From an uncultured Dehalococcoidia bacterium (GTDB taxonomy: Bacteria > Chloroflexota > Dehalococcoidia > Lucifugimonadales > GCA-2712585), in contig OY282371.1 of assembly GCA_958295715.1 (NCBI GenBank), positions 1,406,267 to 1,470,266 on the forward strand: a DNA stretch of 64,000 bases, read 5' to 3'. The position numbers and the translations under genes were made by a program. The notes under the pieces are model-generated. The model saw only the letters and a list, made by a program, of their open reading frames with translations, was not told where the DNA came from and ran no database searches. Positions 2,092 to 62,700 of this stretch are shown here, piece by piece; position 1 is the first letter of the stretch, and every line of letters starts with the position of its first letter.

Positions 2092-3729
2092 ATGAAAGGC
2101 GCGGACGCGGTGGCCAGGATTCTGAAGCAGGAGGGCGTTGAGTTCATGGGCTGCATACCCTACAACACCCTGGAGGAGGCCGCGGCGGTGGCGGGCATCA
2201 GGCCCATCATCTTCAGGCAGGAGCGAGTGGGGGTGAACCTGGCCGACGGGTACAGCCGGGTCACCAACGGCCGCGGGACGGGGGTGTTCACGATGCAGGC
2301 AGGCCCCGGGGCTGAGAACGCCTTCGCCGGGGTGGCCCAGGCCTACGCCGACTCGGCGCCCATACTTCTGCTTCCGGCCTCGGCGGGGCTGGACCGGGCC
2401 GGGGTGCGCCCGACCTTCAGCCCTTCCCAAAGCTATCGCGAGGTCACAAAGTGGTCCGAGCGCGTCAACCTGGTGGAGCGCATCCCGGAGATGATGCGGC
2501 GGGCCTTCAGCCAGTTGCGGTCCGGCAGGCCCAGCCCGGTGCTGCTGGAGCTTCCCACGGACATCCTGGGCGGAGACCTGCCGGAGTCGGCCTTGAATTA
2601 CCGGCCTGTGAAACGGTTCCGGGCGGCGGGTGACCCCCAGGAGGTGAGGGAGGCGGCCAAGGCCCTGACGCGGGCAAAGCGTCCCGTCATCCACGCCGGC
2701 CAGGGGGTGCTGTACGCCGAGGCGTGGAGGGAGTTGATAACCTTGGCGGAGCTTCTCCAGGCCCCGGTGATGACCACCCTGTCGGGCAAGAGCGCCTTCC
2801 CCGAAAACCACCCCCTGGCCCTGGGTACGGGCGGGGCCACCACAACGGGGCCGGTTGTCCACTTCCTCAAGCGCGCCGACGTGGTTCTGGGCATCGGGTG
2901 CAGCTTCACCAGGACCCATTTCGGGGTGGACGTGCCGCCGGGCAAGCTGATGATTCATTCCACCAACGATGACTCCGACATCAACAAGGACTACTCTATT
3001 GACCACGCCATTTGGGGCGACGCCAAGCCGGTCCTGACCCAACTCATTGAGGAGGTGAAGGCCCTGACCGGGGCCAGTGAGGATGGCGAGGCGGCCAAGG
3101 AGGTGAGGGCGGTTAAGGAGGAGTGGCTGCGGGAGTGGATGCCGAAGCTGACCTCCGACGAGACGCCCATCAACCCCTACCGGGTGATATGGGACCTGGC
3201 CCAGGCCATAGACAGGAAGCAGGCGGTGGTGACCCACGACTCCGGCAGCCCCCGCGACCAGATGATTCCCTTCTTCGAGGCCGTGTCTCCCAGGGGGTTC
3301 ATCGGGTGGGGGAAGTCAACCCAGCTTGGATACGGCTTGGGGCTGGCAATGGGGGCCAAGATGGCGGCCCCGGAGAAGCTGGCGGTGAACGTGATGGGCG
3401 ACTACGCCTTCGGGATGGTGGGGCTGGACGTCGAGACGGCGGTGCGCGAGCGTATCCCGCTGCTGACCATAGTTATGAACAACTCGGCCATGGGCATCTA
3501 CGACTCGGACAGGTTCCCGGTGGCCAACGAGCGGTACGGCACCAAGTATCTCACGGGGAACTACGCTGAGGTGGCCGCGGCCCTGGGTGGGTACAACGAG
3601 CGGGTGGAGTCTCCAAGTGAGATCATTCCGGCCATCGGCAGGGCGCGGCAGGCTATCGCGGCGGGGCAGCCCGCTCTGCTGGAGATAATCACCAGGGAGG
3701 AGCGCGCCTTCTCCCACAAGGACCGTTGA
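2092..3729 (+). CDS. thiamine-diphosphate-dependent enzyme (acetolactate synthase-like family)
   Basis: 545 aa. N-terminal TPP-pyrimidine-binding pattern (GADAVARILKQEGVEF..GYSR). C-terminal TPP motif GDYAF..(N27)..NN. Confidence 0.8.
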   Translation: MKGADAVARILKQEGVEFMGCIPYNTLEEAAAVAGIRPIIFRQERVGVNLADGYSRVTNGRGTGVFTMQAGPGAENAFAGVAQAYADSAPILLLPASAGLDRAGVRPTFSPSQSYREVTKWSERVNLVERIPEMMRRAFSQLRSGRPSPVLLELPTDILGGDLPESALNYRPVKRFRAAGDPQEVREAAKALTRAKRPVIHAGQGVLYAEAWRELITLAELLQAPVMTTLSGKSAFPENHPLALGTGGATTTGPVVHFLKRADVVLGIGCSFTRTHFGVDVPPGKLMIHSTNDDSDINKDYSIDHAIWGDAKPVLTQLIEEVKALTGASEDGEAAKEVRAVKEEWLREWMPKLTSDETPINPYRVIWDLAQAIDRKQAVVTHDSGSPRDQMIPFFEAVSPRGFIGWGKSTQLGYGLGLAMGAKMAAPEKLAVNVMGDYAFGMVGLDVETAVRERIPLLTIVMNNSAMGIYDSDRFPVANERYGTKYLTGNYAEVAAALGGYNERVESPSEIIPAIGRARQAIAAGQPALLEIITREERAFSHKDR

Positions 3730-3765
3730 ACCGCAACCAGAATCGGAGATAGGGGAGAGCGGCTT

Positions 3766-5154
3766 ATGTCAACCACCGTCATAACCAATGCGACTATTGT
3801 GACCTGCGACCCGGCCCGGACCGTCCTTCATGACAGCGCCATCGCCATCGCCGGCGGGCGAATCGCGGCGGTGGGGGCCGCGGCGTCGGAGGCGGCCCAG
3901 GTTCCAGGCGCGCGGGTGGTGGACGGCCGCGGCAAGGCGGTGTTTCCCGGGCTCATCAACTGTCACGCCCACCTCACGGCCAACCTGTTCAGGGGGATAG
4001 CCGAGGACTTTGGCTTCCCCTCCAGCTTCAGCTTCCCGGAGGACCCGCGCGACATGGTCTCCGACGAGGAGACGGTTGTCATGGCCCTGCTTGGGGCCAT
4101 CGAGTGCGCCCGGACCGGGTCCACCACCACCGTTGAGATAGCCGGGGGGATAGACCGGTACGCCGAGGACCTGTCGCGCACGGGGCTGCGGTGGGTCTTG
4201 GCGGAGAACACCGGCGACGGTATTGTGGAGCCGACCTTCCGCGCCGGGGAGCCGGTGTTCTCCTACTCGGAGGCGCGGCGGGAGGAGGACCTGGAGCGCG
4301 CCGGCCGCCTCTTTGAAGGGTGGCACGGCGGGAAGTCGGACAGGATAACGTGCATGGGTTCCACCAGCTTGGTGGAGACCAGTTCCCCCGCCCTGCTGCG
4401 CGGGGTGCGGGAGCTGGCCGAGAAGCACGACAGCAGGTATACGATTCACTTGAACCAGAGCCGCCTTGAGGTGGAATCGCTTACGCTTATGCGGGGCGTC
4501 CGTCCGACCCAGAGCCTTTTCCACAACGACTACCTGGGCCCGCGGCTGTTGGCGGCCCACTGCCGCTTCCTAGACCCGTCGGAGATATCGCTGCTGGGGA
4601 CGACGCGTTCCAACATCGCCCACCAGCCGGCCATGGCCGCGCGGCGGGCCGTGATTCCCCCCATTCCCGCCCTCAGGGACGCCGGATGCGTCATTGGCAT
4701 GGGCACGGACAACAACACGCAGGACATGGTGGAGGTGATGCGGACGGGGCTGTTCACCGAGCGGATACTGCGGCAGGACGGGACGAACCCACAGCCGGAG
4801 GACGTTCTTCAGATGACCACCATGGGAAGCGCGCGGGCCATCGGCATGGCCGGCGAAATCGGCTCTTTGGAGGTGGGCAAGAAGGCCGACCTGATGATTG
4901 TGAACGCGCGGCGGTCTAACCTGGCCCCGACCACGCGGATAGTCTCGGCCTTTGTCCACAACGGCCAACCCAGCGACATAGAGTCGGTGATGGTTGACGG
5001 GGAGTTCGTGATGCGGGACGGGAAGGTCCTCACCATTGACGAGGAGGCGGTTATAGAGGCGGCGGATGAGATTGGCCGCCGGGTCTGGCGGCGTCTGGTC
5101 GACAGGTACCCCAACGTGCCCTTCCCCGTGACGCTGCCGCCGGGGGGATGTTAG
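3766..5154 (+). CDS. amidohydrolase-1 family protein (chlorohydrolase/aminohydrolase-like)
   Basis: 462 aa. PGLINCHAHL (HxH metal ligands), later GMGTDNN. Resembles MTA/SAH-, guanine- or atrazine-type deaminases. Substrate is not inferable. Confidence 0.75.
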   Translation: MSTTVITNATIVTCDPARTVLHDSAIAIAGGRIAAVGAAASEAAQVPGARVVDGRGKAVFPGLINCHAHLTANLFRGIAEDFGFPSSFSFPEDPRDMVSDEETVVMALLGAIECARTGSTTTVEIAGGIDRYAEDLSRTGLRWVLAENTGDGIVEPTFRAGEPVFSYSEARREEDLERAGRLFEGWHGGKSDRITCMGSTSLVETSSPALLRGVRELAEKHDSRYTIHLNQSRLEVESLTLMRGVRPTQSLFHNDYLGPRLLAAHCRFLDPSEISLLGTTRSNIAHQPAMAARRAVIPPIPALRDAGCVIGMGTDNNTQDMVEVMRTGLFTERILRQDGTNPQPEDVLQMTTMGSARAIGMAGEIGSLEVGKKADLMIVNARRSNLAPTTRIVSAFVHNGQPSDIESVMVDGEFVMRDGKVLTIDEEAVIEAADEIGRRVWRRLVDRYPNVPFPVTLPPGGC

Positions 5155-5807
5155 CCGGCCAGGGCAGGTTCCGGGGAGAGGGGGTTGGAGACGCCTATCA
5201 TGCTGTCTCTGGTGACGAGTTTGGCCAAGGCCGCCTCATCAAGGCCGTCGGAGCCGCGGGGACGCATGGGCAGGACCAGATACCGGATGTCGGCGGCGCT
5301 GTCCAGGACCCTGACCTCTACGTCGTCATCCAACTCTAGGCCGAACTCCCGCATGACGCCGCGGGGGTCCGACACGGCGCGGGAGCGGTAGGCCAGGCTC
5401 TTGTACCAGTCGGGCGGGCGTCCCAGGAGCCAGGTGGGGTAGCAGGAGCAGAGGGTGCAGACGACCAGATGATGGGCCTTGCCGGTGTTCTCGGCGACGA
5501 CCACGTCGGGCAGGGATGCGGCGGCCTCGTATCCGAGTTCGGCCAGGGCCGCCTTGGCGTCAAGGAGGAGCCGGGCCTTGAAGTCCGGGTCCACCCAGGC
5601 GCGGGCCACCGCCTTGGCGCCGTCGGCGGGCGAGCGCGACTCGGCGGCGTCAACGGCCCTCTGAATCTCGCCGGGGGCGCAGACGCCCTTCTCAACGAGC
5701 AGGGCTTCAATGGCCTTGACTCGCAGGGCGTGGAGTCCCGGCTCCACGTCTTGGGAGACGCCGGGATGGCCGGAGCCGTGGTCGTGGGGGTGGTCGTGGC
5801 TGCTCAT
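5151..5807 (-). CDS. nitrile hydratase alpha subunit (Co-type CTLCSC centre)
   Basis: 218 aa. VVCTLCSCYPTWLLGRPPDWYKSLAYRSRAV metal-binding claw, then DPRGVMREFG..RYLVLP..TRDSMIGV. ATGA overlap with the upstream gene. Confidence 0.9.
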   Translation of the reverse strand: MSSHDHPHDHGSGHPGVSQDVEPGLHALRVKAIEALLVEKGVCAPGEIQRAVDAAESRSPADGAKAVARAWVDPDFKARLLLDAKAALAELGYEAAASLPDVVVAENTGKAHHLVVCTLCSCYPTWLLGRPPDWYKSLAYRSRAVSDPRGVMREFGLELDDDVEVRVLDSAADIRYLVLPMRPRGSDGLDEAALAKLVTRDSMIGVSNPLSPEPALAG

Positions 5808-6151
5808 GGGCTGCTCCTTTCGTCCTGAGTGGAGACCTTCGCAGGGGCATCGGAGGCGGGTTCAAGCCAGTGTTCAAAAACGTCGGCCAGCAGCTTATCG
5901 GAGCGTGGGCCAGAGTAGTCTTCCCACAGTTCGGACTGGTTGAACCTGACCAGGTACAGGGGTTGGGGCGGGAGGCCGGAGGCCCCGTACGCCAGGGACT
6001 CCGGGTTGAGATAGGGGCCGTGGAGCCTTTCCACGACGCCGGTCTTGCCCTGGATGTACCACGGGGTGCGGTGGTGGCCACGCACGTTAAGGCTGAGAAC
6101 CCGGACGCGGTCGCCCGGCTGGAATCTAGGGGTCGCGGCGGGGCCGGGCAT
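5804..6151 (-). CDS. nitrile hydratase beta subunit, C-terminal (SH3-like) half as a separate ORF
   Basis: 115 aa. FQPGDRVRV..RGHHRTPWYIQGKTGVVERLHG, typical of the NHase beta C-terminal barrel. Its start overlaps the stop of the upstream ORF (TGATG). Confidence 0.8.
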   Translation of the reverse strand: MPGPAATPRFQPGDRVRVLSLNVRGHHRTPWYIQGKTGVVERLHGPYLNPESLAYGASGLPPQPLYLVRFNQSELWEDYSGPRSDKLLADVFEHWLEPASDAPAKVSTQDERSSP

Positions 6152-6453
6152 CAGACGTTCCCGCCCTCAAAGTCCGCCATTTTGCGGTCTATCTCATCGG
6201 CGGCGAGGACGCCCTTCTCTATCAGAAGGGACTCTATAGACTCGGCCCACCTTTCGAAGTAGCCAAGGGTCTCGTAGCGGCCGGGGGCTATGGCTTCGAT
6301 GCCACGGCGCAGTTCGTCGCTGCTCAGGAGGCCCTTCTGCCCCAGTACTTGCCTGATGGCGTTGAGGCGTATCTCCCAGTCCATCGGCGGGTGGTCGTTC
6401 ATGTCTATCGCCTCGCCGGTGGGCCATCCACCGCGGTCGTGAACCTTTGGCAT
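6151..6453 (-). CDS. nitrile hydratase beta subunit, N-terminal half as a separate ORF
   Basis: Start moved to ATG 6453 (MPKVHDRGGWP, matching the M..HD.GG start of NHase beta) with a GGAGGA RBS 7 nt upstream. 100 aa. The track ORF start at 6537 would overlap metK. Confidence 0.75.
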   Translation of the reverse strand: MPKVHDRGGWPTGEAIDMNDHPPMDWEIRLNAIRQVLGQKGLLSSDELRRGIEAIAPGRYETLGYFERWAESIESLLIEKGVLAADEIDRKMADFEGGNV

Positions 6454-6476: not shown

Positions 6477-7706
6477 CTACCGTCCATCCAACCCGGCGTC
6501 GGAGCGCAGGGCCTGGGCCTTGTCCGTCCTCTCCCAAGGAAGGTCCAACTCCTCGCGTCCGAAGTGGCCGTAGGCGGCGAGGTTTCCGTAGATGGGCCTC
6601 CGCAGGTCAAGGTCCCGGATGATGGCGGCAGGCCGGAGGTCGAACCGCTTGAGGACCAGTTCCTGGATGAGGTCGTCGGAGACCTTGGCCGTCCCGAAGG
6701 TCTCCACGCTTACGGAGATGGGGCGGGCCACGCCGATGGCGTAGGAGACCTGCACCTCGGCCCTCTCGGCCAGGCCGGCGGCGACGATGTTCTTGGCCAC
6801 GTAGCGGGCGGCGTAGGCCCCGGAGCGGTCAACCTTGGTGGGGTCCTTGCCTGAGAAGGCCCCTCCGCCGTGGCGCGCCAAGCCGCCATAGGTGTCAACC
6901 AGAATCTTCCTGCCGGTCAAGCCCGTGTCGGCGGCGGGGCCTCCGGAAACGAACCTGCCGCTGGGGTTGACGAATATCTTGGTGTCTTCGTCCATCAGAT
7001 GAGGAGGCGCGACCTCCTTGATGACCCTCTCGATGACGTCGCGCTCCAGGACGTGGGGTTCCACCTCGGCGGGGTGCTGGGCGCTGACCACCACCGCGTC
7101 AATGCGCTTGGGCGTCCCGTAGGAGTACTCCACCGTGACCTGGGACTTGCCATCGGGCCAGAGGTAGGGGATTATGCCCTCCTTGCGGACAAGGGCCAGG
7201 CGCTGGCACAGCCGGTGGGACAGGGCGATGGGAAGGGGCATCATCTCAGGGGTCTCGCTGCAAGCGAAACCGACCATCATGCCCTGGTCGCCGGCGCCGA
7301 TGAGGTCCAGGTTAGGGCCGTTCCCGCCGGAGGCGTCGTCGCTGCGGACCTCAAGGGCCTGGCTCACGGCCATGTCAATGTCCTTGGACTGCTCCTGAAT
7401 GGAGACCATGACGCCGCAGCTCTTGTAGTCAATGCCGCGCTCCGAGGCGGTGTAGCCGGCCCTCCTCAGGGTCTCCCTAACGACGGCCGGCACGTCCACG
7501 TAGGCGCTGGTGGTAATCTCGCCCATGACCACCACGAGGCCGTTAGTCGTGCAGGCCTCGCAGGCGATCCGGGCGTGGGGGTCCTCGGTGAGTATCCTAT
7601 CGACGATTGTGTCGGATATCTGGTCGCACAGCTTGTCGGGGTGCCCCTCGGTGACGGACTCCGAGGTGAGTAGGTAGTGAGATGAGTTCATGAATGCGGT
7701 GGACAA
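6477..7706 (-). CDS. metK: S-adenosylmethionine synthetase
   Basis: 409 aa. [48 protein letters not shown] start 9 nt after AAGGAG. Confidence 0.95.
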
Positions 7707-7736
7707 TTGGATGATCTCCTTGTTTGGATTAGGCGC

Positions 7737-9005
<1,269 letters not shown>

Positions 9006-9989
9006 TTAGTTGCTCCTTATATGCGCTTCACGGCGGGCGTCGTTGCCCTTGCGCCATGGCAGGGTCTCCCCGGGCTTGAGGCCGTCGAAGCGGGTTATGT
9101 CAATAAAGGCGTTAAATCTTTCAACCAGTTGGGAATAGGTGATGGAGGCGAGCCTGCCAACGCTGAACTCCTCCACGACAAAGGAACCCATCACGGATCC
9201 CAAGACCAGCGCGCGGCGAAAGGCCCCGGGGCTGAGGTCGCCGGCGGCGGCCAGACAGCCCATGAACCCGCCAGCGAAGGTGTCGCCGGCCCCGGTGGGG
9301 TCGACAACCCGCTCCAGGGGAAAGGCGGGCGCTACGAAAACGGCGTCTCCGGTCAGCATCAGGGCGCCGTACTCCCCCCGCTTGGCGATGACGGCGGTTG
9401 GGCCCATGTTTAGGATGACGCCGGCGGCCCTCAGCAGGTTGGACTCTTGGGCAAAGGCCCGGACCTCTCCTTGGTCCATGAACACGACGTCAACCCGCTT
9501 CAGGACCTCCGCAAGGACATCCCGCTTGCCCTGAATCCATACGTCTATGGTGTCGGCGGCCACCAGCTTGGGCCGGGCATCCATCTGGCTCAGGACGTGG
9601 AGTTGAAGGGCCGGGTCGCTGTTGGCCAGGAATAGGTAGTCGGCGCGTCTCTGTTCCCGCGTGAGGGTTGGCGTGAAGCCGTCGGACACGTTGAGTTGAA
9701 GGTCCAGGGTCTCCCGCAGATTGGCGTCCTCGCTGCTGTATCTGCCCGACCAGCGAAAGGTCCTCCCGTTGACGGTCTTCAGGCCGGAGGCGTCGATGCC
9801 GTGGTTATCTAGGAGGACGCGGTCTTCCTCCCTAAAGTCCTCGCCCACCACGCCGACGATGGCCACCTGGGTGAAGCAACTGGCGGCGATGGAGAAGAAG
9901 GTGAGGGAGCCGCCCAGGACGTTGGTTGCGGAGGCGTCAGGGGTGAACACGGTGTCGTAGCCCACGGAGCCAACAGCCAGGACGCTCAC
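9006..9989 (-). CDS. PfkB-family carbohydrate/nucleoside kinase (adenosine-kinase-like by context)
   Basis: GTG start at 9989, 7 nt after a GAGG RBS and 11 nt after the rhodanese stop. PfkB signature DPTGAGDTFAGGF. The 5' 468 nt of the 483-aa track ORF overlap the rhodanese gene in another frame and are rejected. Confidence 0.8.
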   Translation of the reverse strand: MSVLAVGSVGYDTVFTPDASATNVLGGSLTFFSIAASCFTQVAIVGVVGEDFREEDRVLLDNHGIDASGLKTVNGRTFRWSGRYSSEDANLRETLDLQLNVSDGFTPTLTREQRRADYLFLANSDPALQLHVLSQMDARPKLVAADTIDVWIQGKRDVLAEVLKRVDVVFMDQGEVRAFAQESNLLRAAGVILNMGPTAVIAKRGEYGALMLTGDAVFVAPAFPLERVVDPTGAGDTFAGGFMGCLAAAGDLSPGAFRRALVLGSVMGSFVVEEFSVGRLASITYSQLVERFNAFIDITRFDGLKPGETLPWRKGNDARREAHIRSN

Positions 9990-9999
9990 GGCCGCCTCG

Positions 10000-10353
10000 T
10001 TACTCTCCGTAGTCCGTGGGGAGGTTGTGCTCAATCCAGGCGGGGGAGCCGTCCTCAATGTTGTAGAGGTTCTCCGGGGCGAATCCCAGAGAGGCGGCCA
10101 TCTCGCAGGCCAGGCCGCTGCGGACCCCGGCGGCGCAGATGAAGAGGAGCTTCTTGTCGTTGGGCAGCTCGTCAATCCTGTCCAACAGGTCGTCCACCGG
10201 GATATGAATGGCGCCGGCGGCGTGACCCGTGACCCACTCGTCGAGGCGGCGCACGTCCACCACCACGGCGGCAGCCCCCTCCCTGTCCAGGATGGCCTTG
10301 GCCTCGGGCGAATCGACCCTGTAGTAGGGTTCTCCGGGTTCTTGTCTAGGCAT
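10000..10353 (-). CDS. single-domain rhodanese sulfurtransferase
   Basis: 117 aa. Active-site loop CAAGVRS preceded by VVDVRRLDEW. Confidence 0.85.
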   Translation of the reverse strand: MPRQEPGEPYYRVDSPEAKAILDREGAAAVVVDVRRLDEWVTGHAAGAIHIPVDDLLDRIDELPNDKKLLFICAAGVRSGLACEMAASLGFAPENLYNIEDGSPAWIEHNLPTDYGE

Positions 10354-10368
10354 GATGGACCTCCTGGT

Positions 10369-11235
10369 TCATGTGACGCGCCTGCGAATAATGGGGGCCA
10401 GCTTCCTCTTAAACTCCTCGGAAGCCAGGTCAAAGGGGGTGACGATGGCGGTGTCAAGGGCCGTGGCGCAGGGACAGTCCCGCTCCGTGGGCATCTTCGA
10501 TATGAGGCTGCGGAGTAGGTTGATGGAGGTGGCCGCGTTCTTCTGAAGGTTGGCTATCACCATCTCCACGGTCACGCCCTCGGTGGCCTCGCGCCAGCAG
10601 TCGTAGTCGGTGACGCAGGCAAGAATGGAGTAGCAGATCTCGGCTTCCCGCGCCAACTTGGCTTCGGGAAGGGCGGTCATGCCGATGATGTGGGCGCCCC
10701 AGAGCCGGTACAGGTTGGACTCGGCGCGGGTGGAGAAGGCGGGGCCCTCCATGGCGATGTAGGTCCCGCCCCGGTGGACGGACACCCCCTCCTCCACGGC
10801 GACTTGATGCAGCAGGCCGCTTAGAGAGGCGCAGAAGGGGTCGGAAAAGGCGACGTGGGCAACCAAGCCCTCGTCAAAGAAGGTGTGGTCCCGCTGGAAG
10901 GTGCGGTCGATTATCTGGTCGGGAACCACCATGTCGAGGGGCCGCATCTCCTCCTGGAGGCTGCCCACGGCGCTGACGGACACGATGCGCTCCACGCCAA
11001 GGGTCTTGAGGGCGTACACGTTGGCCTTCACCGGCAGCCTCGTCGGGGATATGCGGTGGCCGCGTCCGTGCCTGGGGAGGAACGCCACGGCGGTGTCTCC
11101 CACGGAGCCGACGGTTATCTTGTCGCTGGGACTGCCGTAGGGGGTGGATATATCCAACTCCCGGGCGCCGGTTAGCCCCTCCATGCTGTAGAGACCGCTG
11201 CCGCCTATAATGGCCAACTTAGCCTGGGTCATCAA
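10369..11235 (-). CDS. mtnP: S-methyl-5'-thioadenosine phosphorylase
   Basis: 288 aa. LAIIGGSGLY start, PRHGRGH, MTALPEAKLAREAE. Confidence 0.9.
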   Translation of the reverse strand: MMTQAKLAIIGGSGLYSMEGLTGARELDISTPYGSPSDKITVGSVGDTAVAFLPRHGRGHRISPTRLPVKANVYALKTLGVERIVSVSAVGSLQEEMRPLDMVVPDQIIDRTFQRDHTFFDEGLVAHVAFSDPFCASLSGLLHQVAVEEGVSVHRGGTYIAMEGPAFSTRAESNLYRLWGAHIIGMTALPEAKLAREAEICYSILACVTDYDCWREATEGVTVEMVIANLQKNAATSINLLRSLISKMPTERDCPCATALDTAIVTPFDLASEEFKRKLAPIIRRRVT

Positions 11236-11248
11236 ATACCGCTCCCGG

Positions 11249-12283
11249 TCATGGCCGCGACGGGGCCAGGTTGGTTGTGTAGGGACTGCGGACGACGCCT
11301 TCCTCGGTGATTATGGCGTCAATATACCGGTGGGGCGTCACGTCGAAGGCCGGGTTGCGAATCCCTATGCCGTCGGCGGCGGTCTTCACGCCTTCCAACC
11401 GGGACACCTCCAAGGGATCCCGTTCCTCAATGGGTATCTCGTCTCCGGAGGCGATGGAGAAGTCAATAGTGCTGGTCGGCGCCGCCACGTAGAAGGGCGC
11501 GCCGTTCTCCTTGGCGAGCACGGCCAGGGCGTAGGTGCCAATTTTGTTGGCCGTGTCCCCGTTGGCCGCGATGCGGTCGGCGCCGACTATGACGCAGCGG
11601 ACGGCCCCCTCTCGCATGAGGAGCCCGGCGGCGGAGTCCACCACCATGGTGGCGGGGATGCCCAGCCTCAGCATCTCCCAGGCGGTGAGCCGCGCGCCCT
11701 GAAGGAAGGGCCTGGTCTCGGTGTGAAAGACCTCAAAGCGGGCGCCCTCCTCCCAAGCGGCGCGTATCACGCCGAGGGCGGTTCCGTAGCCCGCCGTGGC
11801 CAGGGCGCCGGTGTTGCAGTGGGTGAGAACGGCCCCCTGGCTCCTGAGCAGCGCGGCCCCGTGACGTCCTATGCGCCTGTTCACCTCAACGTCCTGCTTC
11901 TGTATGGCCTTCGCCTCGGCCAGCAGGCGTTGGGCCGCATCCGCAGGGCCGGGCGTGGCTTCGGCCAAGGCCAAGAGTCGCTCAACGGCCCAGGCGAGGT
12001 TGACCGCGGTGGGCCGGGCCGCCCTAATCTCCTTGGCCGCCTCTCTGAGGAGGGGCAGGAACCGGGACGCGTCCTCACTCGCCACCTGCCGCGCGGCCAT
12101 GGCCATGGCGTAGGCGGCGGCGACGCCGATGGCCGGCGCCCCCCTGACCCGCATCTCCCGGATGGCGTCGACGACCTGCCGGTAGTCGGAAAGCTCCAGG
12201 GTCACCTCGTGGTGAGGCAACCTGGTCTGGTCCAACAGGGCCAGATTACCGGACACCCAGGCTATGGGTTGTATTTCATCCAA
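11249..12283 (-). CDS. mtnA: S-methyl-5-thioribose-1-phosphate isomerase
   Basis: 344 aa eIF-2B alpha/beta/delta family. LLDQTRLP, THCNTGALAT, GADRIAANGDTANKIGTY. Confidence 0.9.
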   Translation of the reverse strand: MDEIQPIAWVSGNLALLDQTRLPHHEVTLELSDYRQVVDAIREMRVRGAPAIGVAAAYAMAMAARQVASEDASRFLPLLREAAKEIRAARPTAVNLAWAVERLLALAEATPGPADAAQRLLAEAKAIQKQDVEVNRRIGRHGAALLRSQGAVLTHCNTGALATAGYGTALGVIRAAWEEGARFEVFHTETRPFLQGARLTAWEMLRLGIPATMVVDSAAGLLMREGAVRCVIVGADRIAANGDTANKIGTYALAVLAKENGAPFYVAAPTSTIDFSIASGDEIPIEERDPLEVSRLEGVKTAADGIGIRNPAFDVTPHRYIDAIITEEGVVRSPYTTNLAPSRP

Positions 12284-12399: not shown

Positions 12400-12775
12400 G
12401 GCTCCCCTCTCGTCATTCCCGCGCAGGCGGGAATCCATCCCATCCCCTCTTTTACCTCAAGGCAATCGCACACCGGCGCAAAGAGCCAGTAAGAGCTAGT
12501 CTTGTTACGGACAAACCGGCTTAAGGTCTCCATCCCTCGTTAGGGGAGAGACGGGGGCGGGGGTCGCGGCGCAACGGGTGGCGGGTTGCCCAAGCACAAC
12601 GGAGTGGGGGGAGGGGATGGATTCCCGCCTTCGCGGGAATGACGGGAGGGGCGGCGGCGGGTATGACGGCGGCGGGCGGGCCGGAATCGGGAAGACCCCA
12701 ATCCAAAACCAACGCTCCGCAAAACAAAAATGGGCACACGTGCCCTTCCCGCCTGCGCGGGAATGACGGCGGGTA
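12400..12775. repeat. REP/NIME-like repeat cluster
   Basis: Fwd unit at 12412-12436 and rev unit at 12619-12643. Composite rev unit at 12697-12769 = hairpin module (GGGCACacGTGCCC at 12732-12745) fused to a REP. Confidence 0.85.
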
Positions 12776-27224: not shown

Positions 27225-27701
27225 ACGCCTCTCGCCCCCTGCCGGCCATCGACCCTCCCTTCCGTCATTCCCGCGCAGGCGGGAAGGGCACGCGTGCCCG
27301 CTTAGGTTTGAAGAGCGTGGTTCTGCGTTGGAGGCTTTTGCCCACCCCTATCCGCATTCCCGCCCTCTTATCCGTCATTCCCGCGCAGGCGGGAATCGAT
27401 CCCCTCCTTCCGGCATTGCGACGGGGCAACGGCGCAACGGCTCGCAACCCCGGCCCTCTTTCCGTCATTCCCGCGCAGGCGGGAATCCATCTTCCACCCC
27501 TCTATTACGCCAAGGCGACCCGCGCAAATCGCCGGCAAACGCTTGCCCCCTTTCCGGCCAAGACCCTGAATGCCCCCCATATCGTCAAGGAGACAAGGAC
27601 GGCAGCGCCACGAGGGACGCGCCGGAAACGCCTCTGCGGGTGAGACCGGAATTCGGGGCGCCGGATTTGGGTCGGGGCCTCCCTGGATTCCCGCCTGCGC
27701 G
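27225..27701. repeat. REP/NIME-like repeat cluster
   Basis: Composite fwd unit at 27264-27335 (REP + GGGCACgcGTGCCC + T-rich tail). Fwd REPs at 27374-27398 and 27464-27488. Module C at 27556-27664. Truncated rev REP at 27685-27701. Confidence 0.85.
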
Positions 27702-27755
27702 TAGAAACCAGGGAGGGAGGCGGGCCTGGGAGAGCGAGCGACCCCCGTCCGGAGT

Positions 27756-28124
27756 CTAGAACTTCAGCCGGGTTTTGCGATGGGCTACTGTGATGACCTG
27801 GTATTCCATACAGCCAACGACGCCGCCTGTGGACTTCACGACAACCAGGTAAATGTTAAAGGCCTCGCTCTGCCTCTTATACCCCTCGGCGCCTATCTTA
27901 GAGCGGGCGCGCCTGCGGCATCTGCTATCCATTGAAACGATGTATACGTTCTTATTGTCACGCTTCTTATTAGACTTACGATATTTGTGGTGTCTGAGTT
28001 TGCCATTGAGCAACATGGTTTCTATGTGTTCCCGATTTATTCCGCGCTGCTGGAACCTCCTTTGAGCGTGATCCGAGAAAAAGTAACTGAAACCGGGGTC
28101 ATGGTAGAAATTCACCACGTTCAT
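27756..28124 (-). CDS. DUF4258-like small protein (toxin-type fold)
   Basis: 122 aa, low GC (line 27961 hand count 40%). FSDHAQRRFQQRGINREHIETMLLNG and a C-terminal NIYLVVV..VITVAHRK pattern. Confidence 0.55.
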   Translation of the reverse strand: MNVVNFYHDPGFSYFFSDHAQRRFQQRGINREHIETMLLNGKLRHHKYRKSNKKRDNKNVYIVSMDSRCRRRARSKIGAEGYKRQSEAFNIYLVVVKSTGGVVGCMEYQVITVAHRKTRLKF

Positions 28125-28264
28125 GTGAAACCTCCCTTAAGTTATGTTCTCTGAAGCTGCTGCGCCCAAACCTCGCCCACAGATTAACCATAAATCAGGC
28201 TGTGCGGGGATATTTACGACGGGGCGAGCGGCATGGCGCCGCGACTTCAATTCAGCGAAAAAGT

Positions 28265-28292
28265 ATTATAACACAAAAGAGCATTTTGTCAA
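28265..28292 (-). promoter_or_regulatory. near-consensus promoter TTGACA-16-TATAAT
   Basis: Minus-strand hexamers at 28292-28287 and 28270-28265. About 135-nt leader to the ATG at 28124 with a GGGAGG RBS. Confidence 0.5.
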
Positions 28293-28337
28293 GTACTTAT
28301 GCGCCGGATTTCAGGGGAAATAGGGGGATGGGGGGAT

Positions 28338-28443
28338 GGATTCCCGCCTGCGCGGGAATGACGGACAGGAGGCGGGAATGCGGACAGGGGTAGGCAGAAG
28401 CCTCCAACGCAGAACCGGCTCTCTTCAAAACTAAGTGGGCGCC
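28338..28443. repeat. REP unit plus reverse hairpin/terminator-like module
   Basis: Rev REP at 28338-28362. Reverse module B at 28399-28443 (ccaacgcagaaccggctctcttcaaaactaagtGGGCGCCC), about 60 nt downstream of the stop of the 590-aa gene and in terminator orientation. Confidence 0.8.
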
Positions 28444-34680: not shown

Positions 34681-34996
34681 GTCATTCCCGCGCAGGCGGG
34701 AAGGGCGCGTGCGCCCACTTTGTCTTGACGAGCGTTCGCCCTGCTTTGGGCTGCTAGATTCCCGCCTTCACCTCTGTTCCGTCATTCCCGCGCAGGCGGG
34801 AAGGGCGCGTGCGCCCACTTTGTTTTGAAGAGCGTTGGTCCTGCTTTGGGCTGCTAGATTCCCGCCTCCCCCATCCGTCATTCCCGCGCAGGCGGGAAGG
34901 GCGCGTGCGCCCACTTTGTTTTGAAGAGCGTTGGTCCTGCTTTGGGCTGCTAGATTCCCGCCTCCCCATCCGTCATTCCCGCGCAGGCGGGAATCC
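34681..34996 (+). repeat. tandem array of 3 composite units (100, 96, 95 bp) plus terminal REP
   Basis: Units start at 34681, 34781 and 34877. Each unit = GTCATTCCCGCGCAGGCGGGAA + GGGCGCgtGCGCCC + ACTTTGTTTTGA.. + tggtcctgctttgggctgctagattcccgcc. Closing REP at 34972-34996. Confidence 0.9.
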
Positions 34997-35146
34997 ATCC
35001 CCTCTTGACCTTGCGCCGGGACAACCGCTCCACGGCGCGCGCTCCCATCCGTATAAGCGTCCCGGGTTGGCGCCTTCCGGCTCTCGCCCACAGTTATTAT
35101 CCGTAATGGTTGGATGGTCTGTTCATCTGATGAGAGGAGGGAAGAT

Positions 35147-35225
35147 GGATTCCCGCCTGCGTGGGAATGACGGGAAGGGGGGCGGGAATGACGGAAGGGG
35201 GAGAAAAGGGAATGACGGATAAGAG
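35147..35225. repeat. reverse REP followed by tandem GGGAATGACGG half-units
   Basis: GGATTCCCGCCTGCGTGGGAATGACGG at 35147-35171, then gcgggaatgacgg and gggaatgacgg repeats. Confidence 0.8.
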
Positions 35226-37219: not shown

Positions 37220-38110
37220 CGAGCGCCGGCCCTGCGTTAGGGGATGGATTCCCGCCCCTCCTTTCCGTCATTCCCGTGAAAACGGGAATCCAGGAACCCT
37301 ACACAGCAGAACCAACGCCCCAAACCCCGGCGTCGACCCGTCGGTTGCGCCCTCAACGCGGGTCTTGGCCGTAACGGGACTAGCGCTTACCGGCGATTTG
37401 CGCTGTTGCCCTAGTCTAATATAGGGAGGAAAGATGGATTCCCGCCTGCGCGGGAATGACGGAGTGGGGCAGGCGGGAAGGGCGCGGGTGCCCGCTTAAG
37501 TTTTGAAGAGGGCTGTTCCTGCGTTTGGGGGCTTCCTGGATTCCCGTTTTCACGGGAATGACGGATAAGAGGGCGGGAATGGCGATTGCGCTAGAGTCTT
37601 GCCAAGGGAGGCGTGGCCTCCCGCTTGCCTGCTAAGGGGCCGCCAAAGCGTTTACCCTTTCCCGTCATTCCCGCGCAGGCGGGAATCCATCTTCCTTACC
37701 GCTGCTGCGACGCCTTGGAGCCACGCGTTGGCCGCCCTCCGGCCATTGCCCGCCCCTCCCCTTTTCCGTCATTCCCGCGCAGGCGGGAATCCAGGAAGGT
37801 TTCGACTCAAAACCGGCGCCCCGAATTCCGGCCTCGCCCGTAGAGGCGGTTCCGGCGCACACGCCCCCTCGTGGACGCTGCCGTCCTTGTCCCCTTGACG
37901 AAATGGGGGCATTCAGGGTCTTGGCCGTAAGGCCCCGGCCCTTACCTGCGCGGCGCGGCCCTGTCGCAACCAAGTAAGGAAGATGGATTCCCGCCTGCGC
38001 GGGAATGACGGAGGGAGGGGAGCGGGAATGACGAAGTGGGGCAGGCGGGAAGGGCGCGTGGGGGAGCGGGAATGACGTGGGGGGTAGGCGCGGCCTCGCG
38101 CCGGGGGAGC
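37220..38110. repeat. largest REP/NIME-like mosaic cluster
   Basis: REP units at 37267-37291 (variant GTCATTCCCGTGAAAACGGGAATCC), 37436-37460 rev, 37528-37552 rev variant, 37664-37688 fwd, 37768-37792 fwd and 37985-38009 rev. Partial composite at 37469-37530. Module C at 37813-37926. Half-unit run at 38000-38080. Confidence 0.9.
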
Positions 38111-41722: not shown

Positions 41723-41914
41723 CACGGCCCCCGGCCCCGCGGCGTTGCCCTCTCCTACTCCTTTCCCATCACTCCTGCCTTCTGTTCGTCATTCCCCCTC
41801 CCCCCTCGTCGCGCCGGGCCAACCGCACTAGGGCGCGCCCACCCATATGACACCCGCCGGTAGGTCAGAGCCGAGGCGTGGTCTATGGGGTCTGTTCTAC
41901 GACGTGGCCTTCCT

Positions 41915-42025
41915 GGATTCCCGCCTACGCGGGAATGACGGAAGGGAGGGGGCGGGAATGCGGAGGGGTGGGGGCGGGAATGACGGAGGGGAGGGGGCGG
42001 GAATGCGGAGGGGAGAGGGGGGATG
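41915..42025. repeat. reverse REP plus about 4 tandem GGGGCGGGAATG(A/C)GGAGGGG half-units
   Basis: GGATTCCCGCCTACGCGGGAATGACGG at 41915-41941, followed by about 30-bp periodic half-units up to about 42025. Confidence 0.8.
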
Positions 42026-62021: not shown

Positions 62022-62700
62022 GAATCCATCCCCCCTTATCCCCGTTGCGACAGGTGGCTGGCGCGGGATTGCCTCCCCGTCCGTCATTCCCGCGCCCTCC
62101 CTTCCGTCATTCCCGCGCAGGCGGGAATCCATCTCCTCTTATCCCCGTTTCGACAGGTGGCTGGCCCGTGGTTGCCGCCCCGTCCGTCATTCCCGCTTCC
62201 CTCTCCCGTCATTCCCGCGCAGGCGGGAATCCATCCCCTCTTATCCCCGTTGCGACAGGTGGCTAGCGCGTGGTTGCCGCCCCGTCCGTCATTCCCGCCC
62301 CCCTCCATCCGTCATTCCCGTGAAAACGGGAATCCAGGAACCCTTCATGGCAAAACCAGCGCTTCAACCCCTAGCGTCGCCTTGTGGGCGGCCCTCCGGC
62401 CCGCCGCTCGTAGGGGTTGGGTTGTCCGTTCATATGATTAGAGGGGGAAGATGGATTCCCGCCTGCGCGGGAATGACGGATTCGGGGGGCGGGGTTCGGG
62501 GCGCTGGCTCTGCGTTGAGGCCTTCCTGGATTCCCGCCTGCGCGGGAATGACGGGAAGGGAGGCGCGGGCGGTGGTAGCGAGCGTGACCGGTGGCCCCGG
62601 GGCTTGGGGCGTTGGCTTTGGGGTGTAAGGTTCCTGGATTCCCGTTTTCACGGGAATGACGGATAGGGGGGCGGCAATGACGGATTCGGGCGGGAATTCA
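62022..62700. repeat. REP/NIME-like cluster with a 3 x 102-bp tandem array
   Basis: Tandem units begin at 62022, 62124 and 62226 (..GAATCCATCCCCTCTTATCCCCGTTGCGACAGGTGGCTGGCGCGTGGTTGCCGCCCCGTCCGTCATTCCCGC..). REPs at 62106, 62208 and 62311 (variant) fwd. REPs at 62453, 62528 and 62636 (variant) rev. Confidence 0.9.

Follow-up and report, generated by a model that had tools for sequence, protein, structure and literature searches.

A predicted cobalt-type nitrile hydratase with a split beta subunit and no activator gene nearby in an uncultured Dehalococcoidia bacterium

A 64,000-nt stretch of DNA from an uncultured Dehalococcoidia bacterium (Chloroflexota; GenBank assembly GCA_958295715.1, contig OY282371.1, positions 1,406,267 to 1,470,266), hereafter called the window, carries three minus-strand genes between positions 5151 and 6453 that are predicted to encode a functional cobalt-type nitrile hydratase (NHase). 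We put the probability of this reading at about 85%. The enzyme would convert nitriles to amides (R-CN to R-CONH2), probably as an (alpha.betaN.betaC)2 heterohexamer in which the beta subunit is made as two separate chains. How such an enzyme is built is already known, as is a plausible route for its maturation, and the window reveals neither a new enzyme design nor a new mechanism; what is new is a widespread, uncharacterised clade of such enzymes in Dehalococcoidia.

Three overlapping genes encode the parts of a nitrile hydratase

The first gene in the direction of transcription (6151-6453, minus strand) encodes the N-terminal half of the beta subunit (N-half; 100 amino acids (aa), 11.3 kDa, starting MPKVHDRGG(W)). 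It is followed by the gene for the C-terminal half with its SH3-like barrel (C-half; 5804-6151, minus strand; 115 aa, 12.9 kDa, RFQPGDRVRV...GHHRTPWY) and by that for a cobalt-type alpha subunit (5151-5807, minus strand; 218 aa, 23.3 kDa), with CTLCSC at aa 117-122 (nt 5459-5442). As read from the sequence, the two beta genes meet in a TGATG junction with a 1-nt overlap (6149-6153, minus strand), an arrangement for translational coupling, and the C-half and alpha genes share an ATGA junction with a 4-nt overlap (5804-5807, minus strand). A GGAGGA ribosome-binding site (Shine-Dalgarno; 6466-6461, minus strand) lies 7 nt 5ʹ of the N-half ATG, and AAGGAG (5819-5814, minus strand) precedes the alpha start. 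The original prediction, made from the letters of the window, had described a beta subunit split into two coupled open reading frames (ORFs) and followed by a cobalt-type alpha subunit. Its coordinates, both junctions and its motifs all hold on the minus strand, and the Pfam, NCBIfam and PDB matches and the tree described below agree with its assignment of the genes. The same trio of products (100, 115 and 218 aa) is recorded as independent gene calls on the 2.35-Mb public contig.

All three proteins belong to the NHase family. N-half matches Pfam NHase_beta_N (PF21006; 63.5 bits, E = 2e-17), C-half matches NHase_beta_C (PF02211; 90.8 bits, E = 8e-26), and alpha matches NHase_alpha (PF02979) with 258.7 bits (E = 3e-77), passing the cut-off of 27.2. 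On the NCBIfam model nitrile_beta, which has 226 positions, N-half spans 1-96 and C-half 134-226, so that the chain is not merely interrupted but lacks a linker of about 37 residues that a canonical beta subunit has. Among proteins of known structure, the cobalt NHase of P. putida NRRL-18668 (PDB 3QXE) was the best match both for alpha (3qxe_A, E = 1.5e-63) and for C-half (residues 127-219 of the beta chain 3qxe_B, E = 8e-17), and it has the same metal claw and beta Arg/Tyr residues as the window proteins. The best matches of N-half were the NHase beta chains 4zgd_B and 4fm4_B (E = 6e-13).

The residues required for catalysis are retained. The metal claw of alpha, VVCTLCSCYP (aa 115-124), contains the cobalt-type signature V-C-T-L-C-S-C-Y, and alpha also keeps YRSR among its catalytic residues. 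N-half carries the motifs DELRRGIE (aa 46-53, with R49) and GYFERW (aa 64-69, with Y65 and W69), and R49, Y65 and W69 were invariant among 26 family members. In C-half, GHHRTPWY (aa 25-32) aligns with GHTRMPRY of 3qxe_B and holds the second conserved beta arginine (GHxR). In the numbering of the P. thermophila beta subunit, we take R49, Y65 and W69 to be betaArg52, betaTyr68 and betaTrp72, and the arginine of C-half to be betaR157. Where that subunit has betaL48 and betaF51, the window protein has Ser and Leu.

The N-terminus of alpha is rich in histidine (MSSHDHPHDHGSGHPG, aa 1-16, nt 5760-5807), with 6 His within the first 30 aa, and such a tail is common to the split-type alpha subunits of Dehalococcoidia, Streptomyces, Planktothrix and Burkholderia. 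We considered the tail as a sign of activator independence and rejected it, because the alpha subunit of P. putida, which needs the activator P14K, carries one too; the tail is thus not diagnostic.

The N-terminal helices of alpha and the N-terminal domain of beta are distantly homologous. A 52-nt direct repeat, 73% identical, between the alpha gene (5665-5716, IEALLVEKGV) and the N-half gene (6191-6242, IESLLIEKGVL) reflects this homology, and Pfam NHase_alpha weakly matches residues 67-96 of N-half.

The split of the beta subunit is conserved and old

A search with N-half returned 434 homologues, the best 120 of which (down to about 50% identity) were all about 100 aa long. When representatives of 50%-identity clusters were searched exhaustively (E <= 0.001), 1098 clusters matched, and stand-alone N-halves of at most 160 aa made up 117 of the best 150 representatives. 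A scan of species-representative genomes gave at least 574 matching stretches, and the gene architecture was checked in the best 80, all of which came from metagenome-assembled genomes of Dehalococcoidia, Chloroflexota or SAR202. The closest match was only 76% identical, so this set holds no conspecific genome. In about 70-80 species-level loci of Dehalococcoidia and SAR202, the three genes were separate ORFs in the order N-half, C-half, alpha and were never fused; the split was also seen in distant genomes having other neighbours. Of 70 related loci, 33 had beta genes that overlap at their junction (-1 or -4), and in 28 further ones the two genes were at most 30 nt apart. Against the two closest orthologous loci, the ratio of nonsynonymous to synonymous substitution rates was 0.10-0.16 for N-half, 0.14-0.18 for C-half and 0.14-0.15 for alpha; each of the three ORFs is under purifying selection.

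The original prediction had named two ways in which the split could prove spurious, namely an erroneous stop codon between the halves and a recent break within the ordinary two-subunit enzymes. The stop codon is present in all of the about 70-80 species-level relatives, and the beta halves do not nest within ordinary two-subunit NHases; the split is therefore neither an error nor recent.

Tandem fusions of two N-halves occur among the relatives (representatives P0241, P0242 and P0245, 186-202 aa, each with two matched stretches; locus L075, 5391-6008), and a further representative, P0263, has 1009 aa and 11 stretches matching N-half.

The placement of the beta halves was examined in a tree of the concatenated halves, constructed by neighbour joining with a bootstrap of 100. 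The activator-less split systems of Dehalococcoidia, Streptomyces, Planktothrix and Burkholderia separated from the canonical two-subunit enzymes in 100/100 replicates, and the Dehalococcoidia halves formed their own clade in 98/100. As the tree was small, its canonical sequences few and the method simple, it is supportive rather than definitive. A neighbour-joining tree of alpha alone gave a three-way split that did not settle how the split and canonical types are related. The beta halves of the window scored higher against the split halves of Planktothrix, Streptomyces and Burkholderia than against canonical beta, and the N-terminal region of beta reads DE[LK]RRG in the split family versus DEFR[F/H/Y] in canonical enzymes.

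Plasmids were searched by tblastn for split beta genes outside Dehalococcoidia. On a plasmid of Streptomyces sp. NBC_01176 (locus L094), the order N-half, C-half, alpha is followed by genes for an aquaporin and a HoxN cobalt transporter. A split locus of Planktothrix also has the order N-half, C-half, alpha, and a plasmid of Burkholderia PAMC 26561 (locus L098) has C-half, alpha, N-half and then HoxN. Plasmid pUSP2 of Aminobacter sp. MSH1 (locus L101, 2375-4051) encodes alpha, N-half, C-half and an accessory protein, with beta as ORFs of 103 and 118 aa. Because this beta groups with canonical enzymes in the neighbour-joining tree, its split or frameshift appears to be independent of the activator-less type and is probably recent. 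RefSeq routinely annotates split trios as 'nitrile hydratase', 'SH3-like domain-containing protein' and nthA, and the split architecture is common in databases.

Maturation would proceed without a dedicated activator

Every stop-to-stop ORF in the 64-kb window was compared with four accessory proteins, with CbtA and CbtB, with two HoxN transporters and with an amidase, and N-half, the only accessory-like ORF, gave the only match (E = 4e-5 to the Aminobacter accessory protein). The observation in the original prediction that no activator gene is adjacent therefore stands for the whole window. The same search found none of these genes within 6 kb on either side in more than 80 related loci. N-half itself weakly matches the accessory model TIGR03889 (E = 0.0012, 18.8 bits).

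In the enzyme that we propose, the claw Cys-Thr-Leu-Cys-Ser-Cys of alpha would bind Co(III), and oxidation of two of its cysteines, one to sulfinate and one to sulfenate, would be expected. Arg49 and Tyr65 of N-half, with Trp69, would hold and activate these oxidised ligands, while C-half would contribute the second conserved arginine and an SH3-like barrel packing on alpha. Translational coupling would keep alpha, N-half and C-half at a fixed, equal ratio. By analogy with the Streptomyces canus enzyme described below, N-half, the part of beta that resembles P14K/NhlE, probably forms an N2-alpha complex, which would take up cobalt and swap the matured alpha into the apoenzyme. Chaperoning of cobalt loading by N-half would explain the missing activator gene. 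We infer both the cobalt content and the quaternary structure of the window enzyme and, from this analogy, the chaperone role of its N-half.

Several points weigh against this interpretation. On the NCBIfam equivalog model TIGR01323 (nthA), alpha scored 248.4 bits, 1.45 below the cut-off of 249.85. The window proteins are 36-45% identical to those of the Streptomyces NBC_01176 cluster, which served as a stand-in for the S. canus proteins AnhD, AnhE and AnhA (AnhDEA); because the true AnhDEA and ToyJKL sequences were not part of the comparison, the transfer of the chaperone mechanism is an analogy. The Dehalococcoidia members are known here from their genes alone, and few canonical sequences and neighbour joining alone underlie the tree of beta halves. 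Finally, an activator or a cobalt transporter could sit elsewhere in the 2.35-Mb genome.

The design is known from other three-subunit enzymes

The closest characterised counterpart is ScNHase of Streptomyces canus CGMCC 13662, encoded by anhD (N-half), anhE (C-half) and anhA (alpha) (Guo et al. 2019, 2020; PMC7329996). The S. canus genome has no activator gene, and under reducing conditions AnhA takes up cobalt with no activator; the AnhD2A complex acts both as a metallochaperone and as a chaperone for self-subunit swapping, and the holoenzyme has the composition D2E2A2 (PMC7329996). The window system resembles ScNHase in the order N-half, C-half, alpha, in being of cobalt type with three subunits and no activator gene, and in that its homology to self-subunit-swapping chaperones lies in N-half. 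Since ScNHase has the same gene order and no activator, the design is not new. The host differs, Actinomycetota in the case of ScNHase and Chloroflexota (Dehalococcoidia) in that of the window, and the substrates of ScNHase are the xenobiotics acetamiprid and thiacloprid. The NBC_01176 cluster forms a sister clade, and its N-half, C-half and alpha share 36%, 44% and 45% identity with the window proteins; its genes are followed by those for an aquaporin and the HoxN cobalt transporter, whereas the window has neither.

Toyocamycin nitrile hydratase (TNHase; ToyJKL) of Streptomyces rimosus forms an (alpha-beta-gamma)2 complex from subunits of 21.2, 10 and 11.4 kDa (PMC8574189). The window enzyme is likewise of cobalt type with three subunits, and their predicted masses (23.3, 11.3 and 12.9 kDa) are similar. 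As cited in PMC7329996, ToyJ, the alpha subunit, matures alone without an activator and is active by itself (Nelp 2014). ToyJKL lies inside the toyA-M cluster for deazapurine biosynthesis, whereas the window genes lie in a housekeeping region. ToyJ is named first in ToyJKL and alpha comes last in the window, a distinction drawn from description. In a three-subunit NHase encoded on a plasmid of Microvirga flocculans, reported in 2020 and described as cited in PMC11573777, the alpha gene separates the two beta genes. The window enzyme shares the split beta and the cobalt type with it and differs in that its beta genes are adjacent; the Burkholderia locus L098, with alpha between the beta halves, has the Microvirga layout. 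The original prediction, which knew thiocyanate hydrolase and ToyJKL as the only characterised three-subunit members, had thus missed ScNHase (PMC7329996) and the Microvirga flocculans enzyme (PMC11573777).

A canonical cobalt NHase, by comparison, has one beta subunit of 220-230 aa with a linker and requires an accessory gene of the P14K/NhlE type. Such enzymes, exemplified by those of Klebsiella and Haladaptatus with the order nthB-nthA-accessory, form a clade separate from the window proteins. The activator-less type with the order N-half, C-half, alpha is missing from a review of 2020 on how NHase genes are organised (PMC7193024), and our literature search on NHases of SAR202 or Dehalococcoidia found no paper.

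With the present loci, the activator-less three-subunit cobalt NHases, whose characterised members had come from Streptomyces and Microvirga alone, reach into a large group of uncultured bacteria of ecological importance. The at least 574 matching stretches, with the architecture found in the best 80, suggest that the ability to hydrate nitriles is common among the Dehalococcoidia and SAR202 oligotrophs. The clade may also offer compact, self-maturing NHases for biocatalysis.

Gene neighbourhood and possible substrates

The NHase genes follow a string of genes of the S-adenosylmethionine (SAM) cycle and methionine salvage (6477-12283, minus strand) encoding mtnA, methylthioadenosine phosphorylase, rhodanese, PfkB kinase, S-adenosylhomocysteine hydrolase and SAM synthetase, separated by about 40 nt at most. 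From the stop codon of metK (6479-6477) to the N-half ATG there are 23 nt, and GGAGGA falls inside this gap. The stretch between metK and N-half showed neither a promoter-like nor a terminator-like site, and a promoter and terminator scan around the NHase cluster gave nothing above chance; a promoter-like site lies at 12359-12331, 5ʹ of the SAM-cycle string. This upstream string and the NHase genes probably share a transcript. At the other end, the alpha stop codon overlaps the stop codon of a convergent amidohydrolase gene (3766-5154, plus strand) at 5151-5154, which leaves no intergenic room for a terminator. The rest of the large ORFs in the window, examined in a Pfam sweep, are housekeeping genes, among them purL/purQ, riboflavin genes and those for ClpB, cysteinyl-tRNA synthetase, a release factor, endonuclease V and a molybdenum hydroxylase.

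The closest relatives (including L005-L008) keep the whole SAM-cycle synteny, which occurs in only 7 of the 80 species-level loci, with variable spacing. In L016, an opposite-strand ORF of 566 aa (3381-5081) interrupts the adjacency of metK and NHase; judged from its sequence, it looks like a DNA methyltransferase with an HNH-type part and is probably a mobile insertion of the restriction-modification type.

Across related loci, the commonest neighbour of the split NHase is a CE4/PuuE-allantoinase-like gene annotated as 'polysaccharide deacetylase' (PF01522; PDB 3rxz, E = 1e-61), found in 49 of 85 loci, 28 of which have it directly upstream (for example L055, 3799-4617; L063, 5159-5977; L001, 6894-7751). 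The 64-kb window has no such gene. The deacetylase is a candidate for the partner that hydrolyses the amide product.

About a dozen SAR202-type loci have two paralogous BhcC-like genes for pyridoxal 5ʹ-phosphate (PLP) enzymes between C-half and alpha (L035, 6603-9191; L063, 6301-11441; L046, L048, L058, L065, L068, L073, L076, L078, L083 and L086). The inserted enzymes match Ala_racemase_N and D-ser_dehydrat, and their best NCBIfam model is 3-hydroxy-D-aspartate aldolase BhcC (192 bits, below the cut-off). Four SAR202-type loci carry further genes between N-half and C-half. The PLP insertions may hint at an amino-acid-like nitrile substrate in those lineages.

Taken as hints, the CE4 and PLP neighbours point to amide-processing partners in other lineages and not to the substrate of the window enzyme. 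No conclusion about this substrate was drawn from context, the SAM-cycle synteny being limited to 7 of 80 species and the CE4 neighbour being absent from the window. By default, one would expect the enzyme to act on a small or medium organic nitrile that serves as a source of carbon or nitrogen.

Alternative explanations

The two beta ORFs might be one ordinary gene broken by a sequencing or assembly error or by a recent pseudogenising event. Such a split of a canonical-type beta does occur, as in Aminobacter MSH1, where it stands alongside an accessory gene and groups with canonical enzymes. For the window we give this explanation practically no credence, with the stop codon recurring in every related species-level locus, the best 120 N-half homologues of one size, both halves under purifying selection, the linker deleted rather than interrupted and the split-type clade supported in 100/100 replicates. 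The three genes could instead encode a thiocyanate hydrolase (SCNase), converting SCN- to COS and NH3, perhaps downstream of rhodanese in the gene string; the rhodanese gene (10000-10353) is on the same strand. The SCNase of Thiobacillus thioparus (PDB 2DD4/2DD5) also has three subunits, its beta, alpha and gamma corresponding to N-half, C-half and NHase alpha, and it has the cobalt centre predicted for the window enzyme, from which it differs in its substrate and in having its own activator gene. The likeness to SCNase drawn in the original prediction extends to this three-subunit architecture and no further; the sequences of all three proteins place them closer to ordinary NHases. Their SCNase matches were far weaker (alpha, E = 1.9e-42 versus 1.5e-63 for NHase; N-half, 0.03 to residues 48-137 of the 157 in 2dd4_B versus 6e-13; C-half, 5e-7 to residues 30-126 of 2dd4_A versus 8e-17). 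On the SCNase gamma model TIGR03887, which aligns with NHase alpha, alpha scored 175.3 bits against a cut-off of 291.45, compared with 248 against 250 on nitrile_alph. The N-terminal extensions of SCNase (about 47 aa in beta, about 29 aa in alpha) are missing from the window proteins, as is the downstream activator gene that SCNase has (PMC7193024), and we consider an SCNase extremely unlikely. It is also very unlikely that N-half is only an activator of the P14K/NhlE type, with alpha and C-half as the enzyme proper. Its weak matches to TIGR03889 and to the Aminobacter accessory protein would fit such a role, as would the chaperone activity of AnhD; however, NHase_beta_N matches N-half far better and over its whole length (63.5 versus 18.8 bits), the catalytic arginine and tyrosine are kept and invariant in the family, and AnhD is a structural subunit of ScNHase (D2E2A2) as well as a chaperone.

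The two remaining alternatives concern the substrate. An NHase for nucleosides or deazapurines, which like ToyJKL would hydrate toyocamycin or 7-cyano-7-deazapurines of the preQ0 type in adenosine and SAM-cycle salvage or detoxification, would fit the subunit pattern and sizes of TNHase. It would also fit the position of the genes at the end of a tight SAM-cycle string, whose enzymes act on adenosine-type nucleosides, next to a convergent deaminase-like amidohydrolase (best NCBIfam model 5ʹ-deoxyadenosine deaminase, below the cut-off), and L004 has guaB, guaA, a deaminase and purL as neighbours. The adjacency to the SAM cycle is, however, found in just 7 of 80 loci, varies in spacing and is broken by the DNA methylase in L016, while most relatives adjoin serS and the CE4/PuuE-like deacetylase instead. 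The Pfam sweep of the window revealed no toy- or que-type deazapurine genes, and housekeeping neighbours are expected by chance; we regard this substrate as quite unlikely. A broader proposal makes the whole Dehalococcoidia/SAR202 clade an enzyme dedicated to one particular metabolite instead of a general scavenger of nitriles, acting here with the SAM-cycle and methionine-salvage operon on a nucleoside-type nitrile (toyocamycin or preQ0-like) or other cyanide-derived compound, and in the larger SAR202 group, with the CE4/PuuE-like and BhcC-like enzymes, on an amino-acid-like nitrile. This, too, seems unlikely.

Repeated elements in the window

A 26-nt palindromic element resembling repetitive extragenic palindromes (GTCATTCCCGCGMAGGCGGGAATCCA) occurs in 23 copies in intergenic clusters of the window, compared with 0 expected by chance. 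The clusters lie at 49-414, 12412-12643, 27374-28362, 34972-35171, 37267-38009, 41914-41939 and 62106-62660. We considered those flanking the 12-kb block of NHase and SAM-cycle genes as marks of a mobile element and rejected this, the element being a genome-wide family.

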